A DNA stretch of 64,000 nucleotides from Tulanevirus 60ahydrpp (lineage: Duplodnaviria > Heunggongvirae > Uroviricota > Caudoviricetes > Straboviridae), in the IMG/VR virus record IMGVR_UViG_2974724359_000001, positions 83,795 through 147,794 of that record. One strand, written 5' to 3'. The notes under the pieces are model-generated. The model did no database searches, was not told the origin of the DNA, and saw nothing but the letters and a program-made list of their open reading frames with translations. The position numbers and the translations under genes were made by a program. Positions 14,822 through 42,300 of the stretch are shown here, piece after piece (positions within the stretch are counted from its first letter, which is position 1; each line of letters starts with the position of its first letter).

Positions 14822-14860
14822 GTTCGCAAAACACAAAGTAGTGATATAATGGGCACTACT
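14822..14860 (+). promoter_or_regulatory. Promoter GTTCGC-17-TATAAT upstream of gene 39, with a 7-bp inverted repeat around the -10
   Basis: agtagtg/cactact at 14837-14843/14854-14860. Confidence 0.65.
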
Positions 14861-14886: not shown

Positions 14887-16431
14887 ATGTCTGATGAATT
14901 CAAAGTTCTAACTCCTCGCGAACACGTAATTCTTCGCCCAAATATGTATGTAGGTTCTGTCGCATATGAACCACATGAGCGATTCTTGTTTGGTAAGTAT
15001 CAATCCGTTTCCTATGTTCCGGGTCTGGTAAAAATCATCGATGAAATCATCGATAACTCGGTTGATGAAGGTATTCGTACCGATTTTAAATTTGCAAATA
15101 AGATTGATATTCGCTTTGATTTGCTTGAAGGTTCTGTGACGGTAGTGGATAACGGCCGAGGTATTCCTCAATCGATGGTAAACACTCCAGATGGAGAAAT
15201 GCCTAAGCCTGTTGCTGCCTGGACACAAACTATGGCAGGCTCAAACTTTGATGACACCAACCGTGTATCAATGGGGATGAATGGCGTAGGTTCTTCTCTG
15301 ACAAACTTCTTCTCCAAGACTTTTATCGGTGAAACGTGTGATGGCAAAAACTTTCTCACTGTCACTTGCTCTGATGGTGCATCTCAAGTCAATTGGGAAA
15401 CCAAGCCGGGTAAAATCAAAGGAACGTCGGTATATTTCATCCCTGATGAAAAGCACTTTGAAGGAAAAACGATCGATCAGCAGATAGTAGATATCATTTC
15501 TGATCGAATCACAGCATTGTCCGTGGTGTTCCCGAAGATTAAATTCACCATCAATGGTGAAGTGGCTTCAATGAAGTTTGCAGAATATGCTAAAATGTTC
15601 GGTGATGAATCTATCATTCTCGAAAATGATAATTTTAGCATCGCAATCTGCAATTCTCCTGAAGGATTCCGTCAAGTCAGTTATGTCAATGGTTTGAATA
15701 TCAAGAATGGTGGGTCCCACATCGATTACTTGATAGATGGCATTGCCGACGAACTTATTCCATCAATCAAACGAAAGCATAAAATTGAAATAAGCAAAGC
15801 TCGAATTAAAGAATGCTTGACAATGATTGTGATTGTTCGTGGAATGAGTAATCTTCGGTTTGATTCTCAGACAAAGGAACGTTTGACTAATCCGCTCGGC
15901 GAAGTGAAATCACACATTGAGCTGGATTTCAGAAAATTAGGAAAGCAAATCATGAACAATGATGCTATCCTGATGCCAATCATCGAGGCTGCTCTTGCTC
16001 GTCATCTGGCTGCAGAAAAAGCGGCGTTGTCGAAAGCCCAAAAAGCAGCAGCAAAAACCAAAGTCGCTAAGCATATAAAGGCAGGTTCTTGGGGTGATAC
16101 CACCAAGGAGACTACGCTGTTCCTCACAGAGGGTGATTCGGCTATTGGTTATTTGTTGAGTGTTCGTGACAGCGATCTCCACGGTGGATATGCTCTTCGA
16201 GGAAAGGTTATGAACACTTGGGGAATGAAAGGTTCTGACGTGCTAAAGAACCGAGAATTGGCAGATATCTGTGCAATCATGGGTCTCGATTTAGCCGAAC
16301 CAAACCCATTCAAAAAATTGCCTGATGGAGATTTCTACGAGATTGAGCTGGATGGCGTTATGACCATAGTCAACGAGAATGACGAGGTTCTAATCGATAA
16401 CAAGTGGGTTCAAGCAAAAACACTGATATGA
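14887..16431 (+). CDS. 39: DNA topoisomerase II large subunit gp39 (ATPase plus first half of TOPRIM), T4-type truncated form
   Basis: HVILRPNMYVGS, EIIDNSVDE, DNGRGIP, GMNGVGS, FLTEGDSA, YALRGKVMN; ends with a T4-gp39-like tail (EIELDGVMTIVNENDEVLIDNKW) and lacks the DxD motif. Confidence 0.95.
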   Translation: MSDEFKVLTPREHVILRPNMYVGSVAYEPHERFLFGKYQSVSYVPGLVKIIDEIIDNSVDEGIRTDFKFANKIDIRFDLLEGSVTVVDNGRGIPQSMVNTPDGEMPKPVAAWTQTMAGSNFDDTNRVSMGMNGVGSSLTNFFSKTFIGETCDGKNFLTVTCSDGASQVNWETKPGKIKGTSVYFIPDEKHFEGKTIDQQIVDIISDRITALSVVFPKIKFTINGEVASMKFAEYAKMFGDESIILENDNFSIAICNSPEGFRQVSYVNGLNIKNGGSHIDYLIDGIADELIPSIKRKHKIEISKARIKECLTMIVIVRGMSNLRFDSQTKERLTNPLGEVKSHIELDFRKLGKQIMNNDAILMPIIEAALARHLAAEKAALSKAQKAAAKTKVAKHIKAGSWGDTTKETTLFLTEGDSAIGYLLSVRDSDLHGGYALRGKVMNTWGMKGSDVLKNRELADICAIMGLDLAEPNPFKKLPDGDFYEIELDGVMTIVNENDEVLIDNKWVQAKTLI

Positions 16432-17267
16432 ATTACAAACGTGTTTATGATGAGTTGATAAGTAGGGCGAGACATCGCCCTTCTCCAACCCCTAAAGAAA
16501 GACATCATATAGTAATGCGATCTCTCGGCGGAACTGATGAAGAATCGAATCTAGTAGATTTAACACCGAGAGAACATTTCATTGCTCATGTTTTACTGGC
16601 AAAAATCTCGCCGTGCAAAGAAACGATCTTTGCGTTCAACCGAATGTCGATGCATGGAAACTCAAAGTTGTATCAGTCACTACGAAATATGCATTCGAAA
16701 ATTGTGTCGGACTGGTCTAGAAAATTGATGAGAGATCATGTTGTCGTTAAACTCAAAGCAACAGGTAAAGCTGTTCAAATAAAGAAAACCGAGTATTATG
16801 ATAATATTCATTTATATGTCGGCTTGAATTATGGCAACAGATATGAGATAGACAAAATAAAAGGTATGGCACCGTACAGAAATAAAAGTGGTGATGTTTT
16901 ATATTTGCATAAGACGGATGCTCGTGTTTTGTCTGAGGAATTCAAAGGTATAAATGCTTGGAATCCTGAGCGAACAAGAAAAGCCACAATTGCGGCAGCT
17001 GAAAAGATTAAGTCATTGCCATGGTATCGTATGCCAAAAATTGACAAATCGATAGTTTTTGCTCTTGATGTTTATGATTGGTTTGTTTTGTATTACAATG
17101 AAAATCATCCAAAGAAAACTGGTTTATCTCGATGTATAAAAGAAATTGGAATAAACCCAACATCTACGAAATATCTCAATCGTCTGTTTAGAAAATACAA
17201 AGACGGTTACAACCCATATAGTGACAAAGAATTTGTGGAGTTCATAAATGAGCGCAAAAGCAGTTAA
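16428..17267 (+). mobile_element. MobA-like HNH homing endonuclease between 39 and 60
   Basis: RHHIVMRSLGGTDEESNLVDLTPREHFIAHVLL; ATGA overlap with the gene 39 stop; same position as T4 mobA. Confidence 0.88.
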
Positions 17268-17744
17268 AATTACAAATGTGGATATGGCCCGGTATATGGC
17301 GCAGACAAACACTCGACGGGGTGTGACTAGCAACATGAAATATAAAAACGTTGCCATCATGACTGATGCGGACCCAGACTAGCGGGGTTAATCGACGGTC
17401 AAGGTTCAATTTACCCATGTCTACTCGCGTTCTTTAGTCGTTGGCCAGAACTGTACAACCGGGGCTGCGTACGATTTGTAAAAACTCCGGTAGTCATTCT
17501 TTCTAAAGGAAAGCAGACCAAGTGGTTTTATACCATAACTGAGTTTGATGCGCAAAAGGAAAAGTACAAAGGTTGGGAACTTCGATACATCAAAGGATTG
17601 GGTTCACTTCGCGAACATGAATATTCCGAAGTTGTTAATAACCCTCAATATGATATCGTCGATCTTGGGCCCGATTGGGAAGAATTGTTCGAAATGCTGC
17701 TTGGCGATGAAGCAGAACTTCGAAAACAATGGATGTCACAATGA
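17248..17744 (+). CDS. 60: Topoisomerase II small subunit gp60, interrupted by a 17-nt coding gap (17380-17396); predicted 159 aa by ribosomal bypassing
   Basis: ORF1 17248-17379 MSAKAVKITNVDMARYMAQTNTRRGVTSNMKYKNVAIMTDADPD then TAG; ORF2 from 17397 GQGSIYPCLLAFFSRWPEL...RYIKGLGSL...LRKQWMSQ to TGA 17744; GGAG RBS at 17237; absent from the ORF track. Confidence 0.85.
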
Positions 17745-17746
17745 AA

Positions 17747-17776
17747 AAGGGCTCTTCGGAGCCCTTTGTTGTTTTT
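17747..17776 (+). terminator. Rho-independent terminator
   Basis: aagggctc-TTCG-gagccctt followed by a T tract. Confidence 0.85.
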
Positions 17777-36947: not shown

Positions 36948-37611
36948 ATCTAGCTCTACTCAAAAGTCTTTCGGCTTGATTGCAAATAACGAAAAGTTTG
37001 TTTTCATTAATTACTGGCTTTTTACGCCAAAACATCGATACTGCCCCAGCATAAACGTTGTCTAAGTTCACAATCGGGCAACTGTACATGTATTCAAACT
37101 CACTGTGCCCCGCAGGAAGAAACGCAAAATCCTTGTAATTGCTAAAATGTCTTCCTGACAAATGGACCATATATTCATTAGATGTTTTGTTTATTGGATA
37201 CCCGCCCTTTTCCATATCTACAAGTTCCAACGGCGTTTTCCCCTCCGTGGCGACCATGTCAACGAAATAGTTCAAGTTTCTAGGTCTAAAAGAAAATATA
37301 ACTGAAAAATCTGCTCGACTTGAAACATGTGCTATTTGAAGCTGTTCTTGTGTCGCTACCTCAAATTTTCTATCGCGTTCGGCTTGAAGAATTTCCTGGT
37401 AATTTTGAAAACGAGTATCTCGATAAACATTGAAGATTTCGTCCTTGTTGTACCAACTGAAACCAAGTATGAATACAAGGATCAGCAAAATTGCCCGATA
37501 AAATACAACTTCGCCGGTGACAGCGTCTTTGAACAATCGGTCCAGAATTTCCATCAGAATCCCCGCACGACCAGGGGTTTGAGTTCCCTGCGTTTGGTTT
37601 TCTGTACTCAT
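36946..37611 (-). CDS. t: Holin T
   Basis: LDRLFKDAVTG, single TMD, EQLQIAHVSSRADFS..FSFRP.NLNYFVD, YMYSCP, NQAERLLSRAR. Confidence 0.94.
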   Translation of the reverse strand: MSTENQTQGTQTPGRAGILMEILDRLFKDAVTGEVVFYRAILLILVFILGFSWYNKDEIFNVYRDTRFQNYQEILQAERDRKFEVATQEQLQIAHVSSRADFSVIFSFRPRNLNYFVDMVATEGKTPLELVDMEKGGYPINKTSNEYMVHLSGRHFSNYKDFAFLPAGHSEFEYMYSCPIVNLDNVYAGAVSMFWRKKPVINENKLFVICNQAERLLSRAR

Positions 37612-37674
37612 AAAGTTGTTACTCCTGTATAACAGCTCTATTTAATGCTTTCGGCACCTAACGGTGCCGAAATG

Positions 37675-38169
37675 TCATTTATAAGAATCCATTGTGCCAG
37701 TTAGTACAACTTTTGCAACTCGCATTGCCCTGTTGGGGGTTTGCTTTGCCCAAGATGAATTAAGCAATTCAGAGTATGCTTTAGACCAGTCCTTATTGGC
37801 TATGAATGCAAGTGATTTTTTGAATCCAGATAGACGAGGACCTCCCATTTGGAACATTAAGTTACAAATAGCATTTTTTCTAATAGGGTCACAAGCATCA
37901 TATGCTAATTTGATATTAGGGTATTTCTTGATTTCACTTTTGACCGTTTGAACATCAGAGTTAAACAGTGCACTACATTCACTCTCAGAGATAACCCCGT
38001 TCACCTGGCGACCAACCTGTTTACTCAATGTATGGTTTATTAAGGCCATATCAGATGTCTTCTGGGGTATAATCAGGTGACCTATCCCAATAGTAGGGTA
38101 CCCCAGATGGTCCCAATACACTTTCAAAACTCTTCCCTCATCGTAGATGAGCATGTCTTCTAACGTCAT
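37675..38169 (-). CDS. e: T4-type lysozyme (endolysin e)
   Basis: YDEG..LKVYWD..GYPTIGIGHL, NLMFQMG, SSWAKQTPNRA; ATG 38169 with GAGGAG RBS; no signal peptide. Confidence 0.9.
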   Translation of the reverse strand: MTLEDMLIYDEGRVLKVYWDHLGYPTIGIGHLIIPQKTSDMALINHTLSKQVGRQVNGVISESECSALFNSDVQTVKSEIKKYPNIKLAYDACDPIRKNAICNLMFQMGGPRLSGFKKSLAFIANKDWSKAYSELLNSSWAKQTPNRAMRVAKVVLTGTMDSYK

Positions 38170-38180
38170 ACGCTTTCTCC

Positions 38181-38882
38181 TCAATTATTTTCCGAATATT
38201 GACGTGTTTGGTGGCCAGAAAATGATTTAAACAGCTCGCCGTTATACGCCGCAAGATGGCCAGCGCCCGGCAAAGCCATATTCAAATATGGCGACCATGA
38301 CGAATTTTGACCTCTATCACCCACATCATGTTGATCAAAATCTCCATAGTTTCCGAATACTTCAAATTGTATTCGGCCTCGACCTGTCGGGTGTGCAAAG
38401 TTGAAAGTGCGCGAGCCATACCAGTCAGAAACATATTGATCTGGTGGCGTGTATACTCGAGTTTCTTGCCATGGCTGGTTATCCCATCTCCATCGTAGAT
38501 TAACGTATCCGAGATCTCCCCCGCGGTGGGAAGCCCGCCCGGTGCCAATGTACCCAACCTTTATAGTTGCACGTTGTACTTGAGTTAATTCTGTAGAGTA
38601 ACTGAAATTCTGATTGCGGTTATATGGATATCTAGAGCCAGACCACATGTAGCATCGCGAAGGTGATCTGCTTTTATTGAAATAGCGCGAAACCCATCTT
38701 CCGTTAGGACTTGCTCCTTGACCAAAATAGAACGATGACAGCTGGGGGTCTGCCGCGTTGCCTGCGGCTGATAGTCCGGCAAAGCGCCGGACGTTAGTAA
38801 ACCAATTTGGCTTTTTGATATCACCAGTATAACCAATCGCGTTATACCCTATGCTCCAAAATCGCCCATGTCGTTGAGACAT
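38181..38882 (-). CDS. Putative tail-fibre tip/adhesin protein (gp38-like position)
   Basis: Trp/Gly/Tyr-rich; downstream of the fibre; GGAGG RBS. Confidence 0.5.
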   Translation of the reverse strand: MSQRHGRFWSIGYNAIGYTGDIKKPNWFTNVRRFAGLSAAGNAADPQLSSFYFGQGASPNGRWVSRYFNKSRSPSRCYMWSGSRYPYNRNQNFSYSTELTQVQRATIKVGYIGTGRASHRGGDLGYVNLRWRWDNQPWQETRVYTPPDQYVSDWYGSRTFNFAHPTGRGRIQFEVFGNYGDFDQHDVGDRGQNSSWSPYLNMALPGAGHLAAYNGELFKSFSGHQTRQYSENN

Positions 38883-38896
38883 TTTGCCTCCTAATG

Positions 38897-39379
38897 TTAT
38901 ATAAAGTTCAACGCAGCAGTTACAGTATAAACTATTGTTCCGCCTTCAGTGGCAGCGAACTCGTAAGTTTGAGATCGAACTGTTCCCTTGTTTGGATTTA
39001 ATACGCCACGTTGCACGCCATCTACTTGATACCACCGAGCCTCTGTGCAGTTGACATATGTGATTCCACCATTTCGTATACGCACCCATGCCCTACCATT
39101 GAAAATGGGGTAAGATTTAACGGTTGTGCCATCTATATAAGTGTAGATTGTCTGATTGGTTGATGCATTATAGCTAAACGTCGCATCTGGCGGCGTATTG
39201 TTTCCAGTGACAACGGATTGTATAGAAGCAATCTTCTGAAGACGGGCCATACCAGCCAACTGCCCGAGTAAACCGGTTGTGCCAAGACCGGCTTTACTCA
39301 GAATGTTGGAGCCCCATCCATTGGCCTGGAACTCGGTGTTTGCCTGAGACAACCAGAAGGGAACGTTAGGTACGGCCAT
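38897..39379 (-). CDS. Putative gp38-like adhesin
   Basis: MAVPNVPFWLSQ...GW.S.I...AGL....LLGQLAGM resembles the N-terminal attachment domain of T2-type gp38; directly follows the S74 chaperone. Confidence 0.6.
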   Translation of the reverse strand: MAVPNVPFWLSQANTEFQANGWGSNILSKAGLGTTGLLGQLAGMARLQKIASIQSVVTGNNTPPDATFSYNASTNQTIYTYIDGTTVKSYPIFNGRAWVRIRNGGITYVNCTEARWYQVDGVQRGVLNPNKGTVRSQTYEFAATEGGTIVYTVTAALNFI

Positions 39380-42300
39380 ATTCCAACTCCTTCACCTTCT
39401 CGGAGAGTTCCTTGACTGCCCCCACCAGTAGCGCAATCAATGCGGAGTTTGATAGCGTCAGGATTTCGGTCCCGTCTTTGTTACTTGAATCCACTACACG
39501 AGTAACAGCTTCGGGTAGCACCTGCTCGACATCTTGTGCAATCAATCCGACCTCTTTTTTGTCGTACTCGGTGGCTTCAAGCGTCTGCTTCTTGTCGTAG
39601 GAGTAGGCGGTCAGCGATGACACCTTCCGCAGAGCATCCCGCACTTCCACAAGGTTCTTCTTCAATCGCCGGTCTGACCGGATGTAGACGTCATTTGCGT
39701 TCACATTTCCTGTCATAATCCCTGCATACGAACCGAATCCTTGTGTGTGGAAACGGAAGTCTCCTCCTTCCCAAAGATGCAGCGTACTGGCAAAGCGCCC
39801 TGGCATGTGGAACCCGATCCCGGGACGGCTGTCGATAGCGGTATTACCGTTCACCTCGATAGCGCACTGGTTGTAGTCGTTTCCCACAGCATTTTGTGCC
39901 ACGAACCTGTCGTTCTGTTTCACCAGCTCGTAAGGACCTCTCTGGGTACCGCCCTCCTGTCCGCCAATCCACGCTTGCGTTCCAGCAAAGTTGATAGCCA
40001 AGTATCCGAAGTATCCTGCTGCGTCTCCGTGAGCTTGGTTGAAGAGATATGTCCATCCAGTATTCGGAATGCCCGCAATGTTGGATCCTTGGAAGAAGCC
40101 CGACTGGCGGCGCAGAGGGGTGTCCCCTAGAACAGAGCCGATAACCCTGCCGTACTCTCCAAGACCGAACCCTGCCGGAGCCGCACCAACATCCGAGGCA
40201 GTGGGCTTACTCCTGTCACCGTATAAAACGCCTTGGTTAGAAGTACGAATCTTGCCAGAATAATCTATGGTAGCTATAGAAGTTTCTCCGACACCACCAG
40301 TAGAGACCTCAAACTCGCCCGCGGCGTTAACCGAAGTATGAAACCAAGCGCTATTACCATTGAAGTACCGAATTTTAGCGCCGTCAGTAACATTCAATAA
40401 ATTAGCGCTGCCACGGAATGCGACGACTCCACCCATTTCACCGCCAGCAATAGACAATGCGCCAACATCCGAGGCAGTCGGCTTGTTCCCTTCATGGTAA
40501 ATCTTGTAGGTAGCCCCACTTGCGCCACTACGCCATGTGAGAGAGTTATCAGCCCCTATCGTGCCCCCAATCCACAGGCGCCCTCGCTCAGTGCCATCAG
40601 GTGCTCTCCACACAATGTCTGCCATGTCGTCAGCAGAGGACCCTACAAGGTCAAGTATCCCTGTGACTCCTAGCATCCCGGATACAGTCCCACCAGCAAC
40701 AGGCAGAGCCCCGATTTCAGACAGCGACCAAGACACGTCACCCGCACCGTTAACGGACTTAGCAGCGTTGCCGATAGTCAGGGTGCGGGCTGTACCCCAG
40801 TTCGCCGTGGTGATGTTGCCGGAACCGTCAAAGTTGGTGCCGTTAATCTGGCGAGCCGTAGCCAGCTTGGTTGCCGTGGCCGCATTGCCAGCAAGAGCGC
40901 CCGTGAATGTCGGAGCGGTCACCCCAGCAGCCACGACCAGCCCTGTAGGCTTTAGTGACATCCAATCGGTAGTGTTCGCTCCGTTTACACTCTGCCACTT
41001 GAAGTATTCGTTACCGTTATCCCCGGTTTTGAACCACATGTAGCTGTCGGTGTCGTCGCCAGAGGCATTCTTGAAACCAATCTTCGCGTAATCAGAATTG
41101 AAGACCCAGCCCAGCTCGCAGGCAGCATCGACGAACGTAAGCCCACCGGTCATTGCATCGCCAGCTTTAGCAACCGCACCAACGTTAGTTGCAGAAATCG
41201 AAATATTCGATGTGCCATCAAATGGAACACCTGCAATAAGTCTAGCTGTCTGTAATCTAGAAGCCGTAACGGCATTTCCATTGACTGGAAGAGCTCCTAC
41301 TGCTTCTGGAGTTGGGTTATATCCGTTATCGTAAACACGATTGCTTCCGTTATAAGTACCAGAGCCTTTATCAAAATTCGCAAGAACAATGGTTTTTGTA
41401 TTTCCACTTACTTGGCCATTAACCGCAAAGATAGATGTTCCATATGTAACATCAGTTGCATAGGCGGTGACGGCTGTTTCGATATCGACTCTAACTCTTA
41501 TCGGGAAAGCACGTGTTTCAACGTAAACAACAAACCCATCTACGGCCTCAGATGGTCCGTGGATTGAGTGAATTGCTCTTTCTGATGTAGAATAAATCGT
41601 AAACTGGCCTACGGCATAACTTCCACCGTCACCCCATCCACTGGCGCGAACATTACCGGTAAATGAGCAATTGTTCATTGGATGCGACTCATGACCAGTC
41701 AAAGTATCGATGAAGACAAACGAATTGGATGTTCCATATGTTTTAAAAAGAACTGGAATATACCCGGAAGTCGGTGCTCCAGCAGGAAGTGCGATTGTCA
41801 AATCTTTCACACCTTTACCCGAAGCAGTAACGGTCGATTCAACAAAATCTCTGCGAGCAACAGAATTAGCTTCTGCTCCTTGTGCAGCAGACAAAAGAAC
41901 TTTTGGAACAGCCAAATTGCCAGACATAATGTCGCCGATTTTTTTGACGTAATCGGAGTGTGTATGACTGTCATTCGTTACGGTCACCGCCAAAGAAACG
42001 TTTGCACTACCATCGAACGATACCGAGCCAGTTGCGCCTCCAGTCAAACTGATAGTTCTTGCGGTTTGCAACTTGGATGCAGATACGGCATTTGCGCCGG
42101 CAGCTAATGCGCCAATTTCTGCAGGAGTAGGTTTATCAGCTTCGGTATAAATCTTTTGGTTTGCTAATTTAGTGCCTGCAGAGTCGTATGCGTATGTGTA
42201 CATACCATAACCGATACTTCCGTAATCGAAAGTAATACCGCGGGCATGTGCACCGTTACTGGAAGATGGAGTAGAAACGTTAATAGTCAAGTCACGGAAT

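Follow-up and report, generated by a model that had tools for sequence, protein, structure and literature searches.

The topoisomerase II large-subunit gene of a T4-like Aeromonas phage is very probably completed during translation, by a programmed bypass in which the ribosome would hop from one GAC codon to a second one across a 17-nt gap in gene 60. The gap lies in a stretch of 64,000 nucleotides (the window), which is part of a complete 165,795-bp record of an uncultured virus with terminal repeats. A reading of this DNA made without database searches (the sequence-only reading) had proposed the hop as a new candidate signal and a second bypass beside that of T4. Comparative evidence bears out the interpretation itself, namely a bypass of the gene 60 type whose GAC codons match, whose gap measures 17 nt and whose insertion point precedes that of T4 by one codon, whereas its novelty does not hold.

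The identical 17 nt are already annotated in phages Aes012 and Aes516 (GenBank JN377895 and JN377905, respectively), where a joined CDS is accompanied by a misc_feature 'predicted 17 nt non-coding translational bypass region in mRNA'. This feature covers exactly the 17 nt in Aes012, and in Aes516 it is displaced by 2 nt with respect to the TAG...GAC span. Manning & Atkins (bioRxiv 10.1101/2022.08.31.505936) place the Aeromonas phages in clade 6 of the MobA element, in which the take-off and landing codons are all GAC, take-off now lies at Asp45, the stem-loop has shrunk drastically, and the bypass region is much shorter, 'just 20 nt'. The bypass prediction was made independently by the GenBank annotators and by Manning & Atkins in 2022, which supports it; the gap itself is real, and its reading as a hop is sound but already known as a prediction. 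We found no experimental demonstration of a bypass product across the Aeromonas gap in the literature; two other Aeromonas-phage papers that name Aes012 use 'bypass' in a different sense of the word. Our analysis adds another genome with the identical element, the exact absence of the 17 nt from relatives, selection on both halves of the gene, the presence of the gap in independent metagenome contigs and its co-occurrence with a gap-less allele.

Layout and origin of the split gene

The locus is the gene 39 / mobA / gene 60 region of a T4-like, Tulanevirus-type Aeromonas phage (Table 1). At the locus it shares 98-99% DNA identity with Aeromonas phages 50AhydR13PP, AS-gz, Aes516 and Aes012, which are T4-like and belong to the genus Tulanevirus. 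The genes form one operon that runs from a promoter-like site to a UUCG-loop terminator after gene 60. Gene 39 is intact and collinear with the uninterrupted gp39plus60 gene of Aeromonas phage 25, and its stop codon is overlapped by the ATG of the endonuclease gene at 16428 (ATGA).

Table 1. Features of the gene 39 / mobA / gene 60 locus, in window positions
Feature	Position	Strand	Basis or detail
Sigma-70-like (early-type) promoter match upstream of gene 39	14823..14850	+	TTCGCA, 16-nt spacer, TATAAT; 10/12 matches plus TG extension; consensus match only
Gene 39, N-terminal part of topoisomerase II large subunit, 514 aa	14887..16431	+	Pfam HATPase_c, DNA_gyraseB
Cassette DNA: gp39 C-terminal extension, endonuclease gene, gp60 N-terminal extension	16306..17336	+	Gapped in the alignment rows of phage 25, avDM4 and Aes508
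MobA-type HNH homing endonuclease gene	16428..17267	+	phrog_655 homing endonuclease, E 7.8e-51
GGAG ribosome-binding site of gene 60	17237..17240	+	7 nt 5' of ATG 17248
Gene 60 ORF1, 44 codons: putative nascent-peptide signal and re-copied topoisomerase stretch KYKNVAIMTDADPD	17248..17379 (TAG to 17382)	+	Translation; phrog_19082, E 2.7e-26
Predicted take-off codon GAC (Asp44)	17377..17379	+	Sequence and alignment
17-nt coding gap: UAG stop, C, GGGG(U) candidate mini-SD, UAAUC, landing GAC	17380..17396	+	Alignment with relatives
GGGGU, Shine-Dalgarno-like candidate mini-SD	17384..17388	+	Sequence; putative anti-SD pairing
Predicted landing codon GAC	17394..17396	+	Sequence and alignment
Gene 60 ORF2, 115 codons and TGA: remaining TOPRIM and TOPRIM_C region	17397..17744	+	Translation, domain match, comparison with phage 25
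Predicted interrupted hairpin enclosing the gap, take-off codon in its 5' arm	17370..17407	+	Folding
Intrinsic terminator after gene 60: 9-bp stem, UUCG loop, T-rich tail	17746..17775	+	Sequence

Sequence comparison indicates that a MobA-type HNH homing-endonuclease cassette split the large-subunit gene. The endonuclease aligns over 96% of its length with the annotated mobA of RB55 at 36% identity (E 4e-44), and that gene, too, is placed between genes 39 and 60. The gp39 tail shares 50% identity with that of T4 gp39, and ORF1 shares 57% with residues 2-45 of T4 gp60 (E 8e-14). This is the organization of the gene 60 type, with genes 39 and 60 separated by a MobA-type HNH gene and cassette-derived tails on both halves. 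The ORF1 peptide was found in 72 phage records, from Escherichia, Acinetobacter, Salmonella, Aeromonas, Proteus and Shewanella groups.

Residues V11, D12, M13, Y16, Q19, N21, R23 and R24 of T4 gp60, which the sequence-only reading had named, occupy the same positions in ORF1, as the T4 record confirms. The nascent-peptide signal of T4 (Y16, Q19, V22, R24, Y33, T40 and others) is thus recognizable, with Y16, Q19, R23 and R24 kept, Y32 and T39 of ORF1 matching Y33 and T40 of T4, and V22 replaced by T. This likeness suggests that the ORF1 peptide may act on the ribosome.

The endonuclease gene is intact in the window and in Aes516, 50AhydR13PP and AS-gz, and internally deleted in Aes012. About 650 nt are gone inside the gene of Aes012 (L002 2629-2841 = window 16428-17267), while neither the gp39 tail nor the gp60 head nor the 17-nt gap has changed, which indicates that the gap outlives the endonuclease.

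Anatomy of the gap and comparison with uninterrupted relatives

The two reading frames and the codons at the gap agree in every coordinate with the sequence-only reading, which had described a 44-codon ORF that begins at ATG 17248 behind a GGAG and closes with GAC and TAG, and a second GAC followed by a 115-codon frame with an upstream stop at 17364. The 3' end of ORF1 is GAT GCG GAC CCA GAC (peptide ...MTDADPD), followed by TAG at 17380-17382, and the gap consists of TAG CGGGGTTAATC GAC. From 17397 the sequence continues as GGT CAA GGT TCA ATT, in a frame that is -1/+2 relative to ORF1 and closes at TGA 17742-17744. This second frame is preceded by TGA 17364-17366, has its first conventional start at TTG 17598 and, as had been claimed, contains no ATG until near its end (17694).

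Between the take-off and landing codons there is no GAY triplet in any frame, and the landing GAC is the first GAY after take-off when all frames are considered. The two codons are thus matched, readable by one tRNA, and have no cognate triplet between them, as in the gene 60 type. The UAG (17380-17382) is followed by C, as in T4 and other clades. At the sequence level, an SD-like triplet appears at the distance of 5-7 nt 5' of the landing codon, since GGG (17385-17387, within GGGG 17384-17387) stands exactly 6 nt upstream of it, as previously noted. Manning & Atkins count GGG among the triplets found 5-7 nt 5' of landing sites, and for R13 they describe a mini-SD 5 nt after take-off (bioRxiv 10.1101/2022.08.31.505936).

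Some observations on coding concern the same region. The -1 frame of the gap region (17379-17399) spells LAGLIDG, an echo of the LAGLIDADG homing-endonuclease motif, and this resemblance is almost certainly a coincidence. In this genome UAG is the rarest stop among long ORFs (12/140), and GAT outnumbers GAC about 2:1, yet the take-off and landing codons of the cassette are both GAC. Outside the window (genome positions 36970-41818) there are 18 clustered tRNA genes; these include tRNA-Gly(UCC) and tRNA-Asp(GUC) (40651-40724), the latter being the species that would make the hop, and no link between this phage-encoded tRNA-Asp and the hop was found.

The window was aligned (MAFFT) with the uninterrupted gp39plus60 genes of Aeromonas phages 25, avDM4 and Aes508, relatives of the gap-less kind that the sequence-only reading had suggested looking for, together with the cassette phages in which the gap is identical. 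These three genes lack two blocks of the window: about 1 kb (16306-17336), which comprises the gp39 tail, the endonuclease and the gp60 head, and exactly the 17 nt. Gene 60 thus carries, at codon 45/46, a frame-breaking non-coding insert that is missing from uninterrupted relatives, as in the gene 60 type. At the junction the three relatives read ...DADPDGQGSIYPCLL, and the protein of phage 25 reads ...TDADPDGQGSIYPCLLAFFSRWP..., or, over a longer stretch, ...KYKNVAIMTDADPDGQGSIYPCLLAFFSRWP... This matches the proposal that skipping 17380-17396 restores DADPD-GQGSI. The junction of phage 25 is the one predicted for a GAC-to-GAC hop; this and the exact absence of the 17 nt from the three relatives indicate that the gap is more than chance.

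Where the cassette has GAC twice, the uninterrupted genes have a single GAT. The re-copied topoisomerase stretch of ORF1 carries further synonymous differences from them, such as GCG for GCC, and these differences indicate that the stretch 5' of the gap arrived with the cassette.

The 17 nt can also be compared with longer gaps. In T4, S16, Pm5461 and fHyAci03 the gap begins UAGCC-UUCG-GGCUA(U/A)UC..., versus UAGC-GGGGUUAAUC-GAC here, and the Acinetobacter and Salmonella cassettes carry a UAGCC-UUCG-GGCUAAUC stem-loop. Placed side by side with these, the Aeromonas gap looks like what remains of a take-off stem-loop, joined straight to the landing codon after loss of the AU-rich 3' half of the gap, and the GGGG, the possible mini-SD, may derive from the old loop and 3' arm.

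The public records of 50AhydR13PP and AS-gz, and their RefSeq copies, present gene 60 as two unrelated short CDSs with no bypass annotated. These correspond to the 44-codon ORF and to a 48-codon piece that starts at TTG 17598 (L005 / L006 2449-2945 = window 17248-17744), so that two thirds of ORF2 remain unannotated. The predicted hop is therefore relevant to annotation, as several public records split the gene in this way.

Coding constraint and alternative explanations

Substitutions among the five cassette phages were used to assess whether both halves of gene 60 behave as coding sequence. All six variable codons of ORF1 are synonymous, as are 14 of the 15 in ORF2, and ORF2 is open for its 115 codons in seven genomes. 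This pattern indicates that both halves are under purifying selection, although part of the signal in ORF2 could have been imported by recombination with gap-less phages. As ORF2 has no start codon of its own and evolves as coding sequence, it must be reached by recoding. All of the alternatives considered below fit the data worse than a programmed bypass.

The constraint on ORF2 bears most directly on the idea that the gap is not overcome at all, gene 60 being dead or producing the 44-aa peptide alone, in a phage that lacks its own complete topoisomerase or relies on the host enzyme. This is unlikely. No published gene 60 product was found for this gap, and several records list the pieces as separate short CDSs, but a frame of no use would not be expected to stay open in seven genomes with almost exclusively synonymous variation, nor would ORF1 be expected to vary purely synonymously. 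Gene 39 is intact as well, and the cassette persists in Aes012 after the decay of its endonuclease.

A frame relation of -1 between the two ORFs would also suit a -1 ribosomal frameshift in their 16-nt overlap (17367-17382), ORF2 being open from 17367, and the sequence C CCA would permit tRNA-Pro to re-pair partially from CCA onto CCC. Such an event is very improbable here, because the overlap contains no X XXY YYZ slippery heptamer, and no significant stimulatory structure lies downstream. Its product would be gp60 with five or six additional residues (...DADP-RLAGLID-GQGSI...), and these would interrupt the metal-binding motif DxDxDG, which is unbroken in the aligned uninterrupted relatives. 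The pair of GAC codons, the UAG, the spacing of the GGG and the homology to the T4 bypassing cassette would then all be coincidence.

The same motif argues against a large subunit made of three pieces, in which ORF2 would initiate independently at a non-canonical start near the GGGG, since the split would fall within DxDxDG. The GGGG is SD-like and AUC 17391-17393 is in the ORF2 frame, but just 3 nt separate the two and AUC initiates very poorly; the matched GAC codons and the conserved T4-like nascent peptide would be left unexplained, and we consider this explanation hardly credible.

The 17 nt are identical in five isolates (cassette-bearing phages include Aes516, Aes012, 50AhydR13PP and AS-gz) and in one other metagenome contig, the 159-kb JGI contig L015. 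Contigs from four wastewater studies, one of them from a metatranscriptome (RNA) library, also span the gap with no indel and no joint. The presence of the identical gap in isolates and in contigs from four studies shows that it is not an assembly error, a possibility that the sequence-only reading had named as one that would undo its proposal. There is a negligible chance that errors in assembly or sequencing created the 17 nt, or that the RNA loses them, given the five independently sequenced isolates and the JGI contig, the uninterrupted coverage in four studies including an RNA library, and a length far too small for a self-splicing intron.

Variants of the gap were sought in larger collections. 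A search of IMG/VR viral contigs for short-gap variants with an Asp take-off (degenerate pattern and exact gap) gave none beyond the window's own record, and a search of JGI metagenomes for variant gaps gave a single contig (L015), with the gap identical. As every copy of the gap is identical, the Aeromonas clade is without covariation or codon-pair variation.

In one wastewater run (X6), short gap-less contigs occur alongside a gap-bearing contig; the loose end CGATCCAGATGGC lies just before 17400 (window 17397-17434) and is as in phage 25 and Aes508. The occurrence of both alleles in one run indicates that donor and target phages of the homing cassette share a habitat.

The predicted hop and known bypass systems

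A stable take-off structure is the element of the T4 system that is missing. The take-off stem-loop is described as a key requirement of T4 bypass (bioRxiv 10.1101/2022.08.31.505936), and a hairpin of this type, its 5' arm holding the take-off codon and its loop a stable tetraloop, is absent as such from the Aeromonas gap. The hairpins proposed in the sequence-only reading had been called weak there, and rightly so: the folds of 17365-17400 (-6.7 kcal/mol, z +0.5) and 17377-17396 (-1.2 kcal/mol, z 0) are no better than those of shuffled sequence, versus -17.5 kcal/mol for the 10-bp UUCG take-off hairpin of T4 and stronger values still for the hairpins of S16 and fHyAci03. Folding of 17300-17376 (z -1.0) for a 5' stem-loop, and of 17397-17470 (z +2.0) for a barrier to forward slippage, revealed nothing notable.

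Among the several segments folded, one did stand out: a predicted interrupted 12-bp hairpin at 17370-17407 (-14.2 kcal/mol, 79% of the ensemble, z -2.4), whose 5' arm contains the take-off codon and whose 3' arm is formed by the first ORF2 codons. A natural GGT>GGC variant in Aes516 lowers its stability to -9.1 kcal/mol (z +0.2). The missing take-off stem-loop, the lack of a notable 5' stem-loop or slippage barrier and the weakening of the sole notable hairpin by a natural variant count against the bypass reading. The cassette-specific synonymous codons GCG GAC ... GAC (GCC GAT ... GAT in the relatives) strengthen the lower stem of this hairpin, which could reflect selection for structure or merely the codon choice of the donor.

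Besides the endonuclease gene, the cassette placed a 17-nt insert that cannot be translated within the DxDxDG (TOPRIM) codons of the gene's downstream part. The programmed bypass would proceed as follows. The ribosome would translate the 44-codon ORF1, whose nascent peptide is homologous to the bypass peptide of T4 gp60, and pause with peptidyl-tRNA-Asp on the take-off GAC while UAG(C), which is decoded slowly, occupies the A site. The tRNA would then unpair and stay in the ribosome while the mRNA slides by 17 nt, and re-pair with the landing GAC, probably aided by pairing of GGGGU with the anti-SD 6 nt upstream. Decoding would resume at GGT 17397 and yield a 159-aa gp60 with the junction ...DADPD-GQGSI... 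(TDADPDGQGSIYPC...). Over so short a gap the anticodon is expected to scan little or not at all, a point made in the preprint as well (bioRxiv 10.1101/2022.08.31.505936).

At the DNA level, the insert would destroy the endonuclease target site in the phage's own genome. By analogy with T4 MobA, it probably protects the phage from its own endonuclease; for T4, such protection by the insert was shown by Bonocora 2011, as cited in bioRxiv 10.1101/2022.08.31.505936.

How the hop could work with so little structure can be suggested tentatively. It may be a minimal bypass with no take-off stem-loop, in which the nascent peptide and the pause at UAG provide the drive, GGGGU/anti-SD pairing provides the catch, and the whole gap fits in the mRNA channel; or the hairpin that encloses the gap (17370-17407), with its coding 3' arm, may take part. 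Both versions taken together remain on the doubtful side. If true, either would be a programmed bypass that is mechanistically distinct from, and much simpler than, that of T4.

Few recoding events are as rare as programmed translational bypass. No natural gap in the gene 60 family is shorter than that of Aeromonas, which lacks the hairpin held to be key in T4. Nature thus supplies here a minimal construct that is useful for finding out which signals are needed (peptide, stop codon, matched codons or SD catch), a value already pointed out in the 2022 preprint.

Within Aeromonas clade 6 (Aes012, Aes516, 50AhydR13PP and AS-gz) the element is the same as in the window: the 17-nt gap, the GAC codons, the UAG, the GGGG, the MobA-type gene and the ORF1 peptide. 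The differences are a handful of synonymous substitutions, the origin of the present copy from an uncultured 165.8-kb record, and the length, which the preprint counts as ~20 nt, not 17.

T4 gene 60 has a 50-nt bypass within a mobA element (Huang 1988; Weiss 1990; Bonocora 2011, all as cited in bioRxiv 10.1101/2022.08.31.505936). The topoisomerase split lies at the same position as in the present gene, and the gp39 tails, endonucleases and gp60 nascent peptides of the two systems are homologous. In both, the landing codon matches the take-off codon, UAG(C) follows the latter, and 6 nt before landing there is an SD-like triplet (GAG in T4). In contrast, the gap here is 17 nt instead of 50, the codons are GAC (Asp) instead of GGA (Gly) and lie one codon earlier, both the 10-bp UUCG take-off hairpin and the AU-rich 3' half of the gap are absent, and the endonuclease is intact here and decayed in T4.

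The earlier insertion point is not unique to Aeromonas, since an Asp take-off is common to the Acinetobacter clade (also in bioRxiv 10.1101/2022.08.31.505936). The cassettes of fHyAci03, KARL-1 and AC4 have the ORF1 peptides closest to ours outside Aeromonas (67% identity), and they also take off from Asp (GAU, with landing on GAC), one codon before the Gly of T4. Their gap start, UAGCC...GGCUAAUC, resembles the UAGC-GGGGUUAAUC found here, but in them the UUCG stem-loop is complete and the AU-rich gap long.

Short stop-codon hops, in which a tRNA hops over a stop or hungry codon between matched codons, are mostly of low efficiency and unprogrammed; the introduction of bioRxiv 10.1101/2022.08.31.505936 summarizes such hops. 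With these the predicted Aeromonas hop shares the short distance between matched codons, the slow A-site codon and independence from any large RNA structure, whereas it differs in having a dedicated nascent peptide, an SD-like catch and an essential-looking gene that would depend on the hop.
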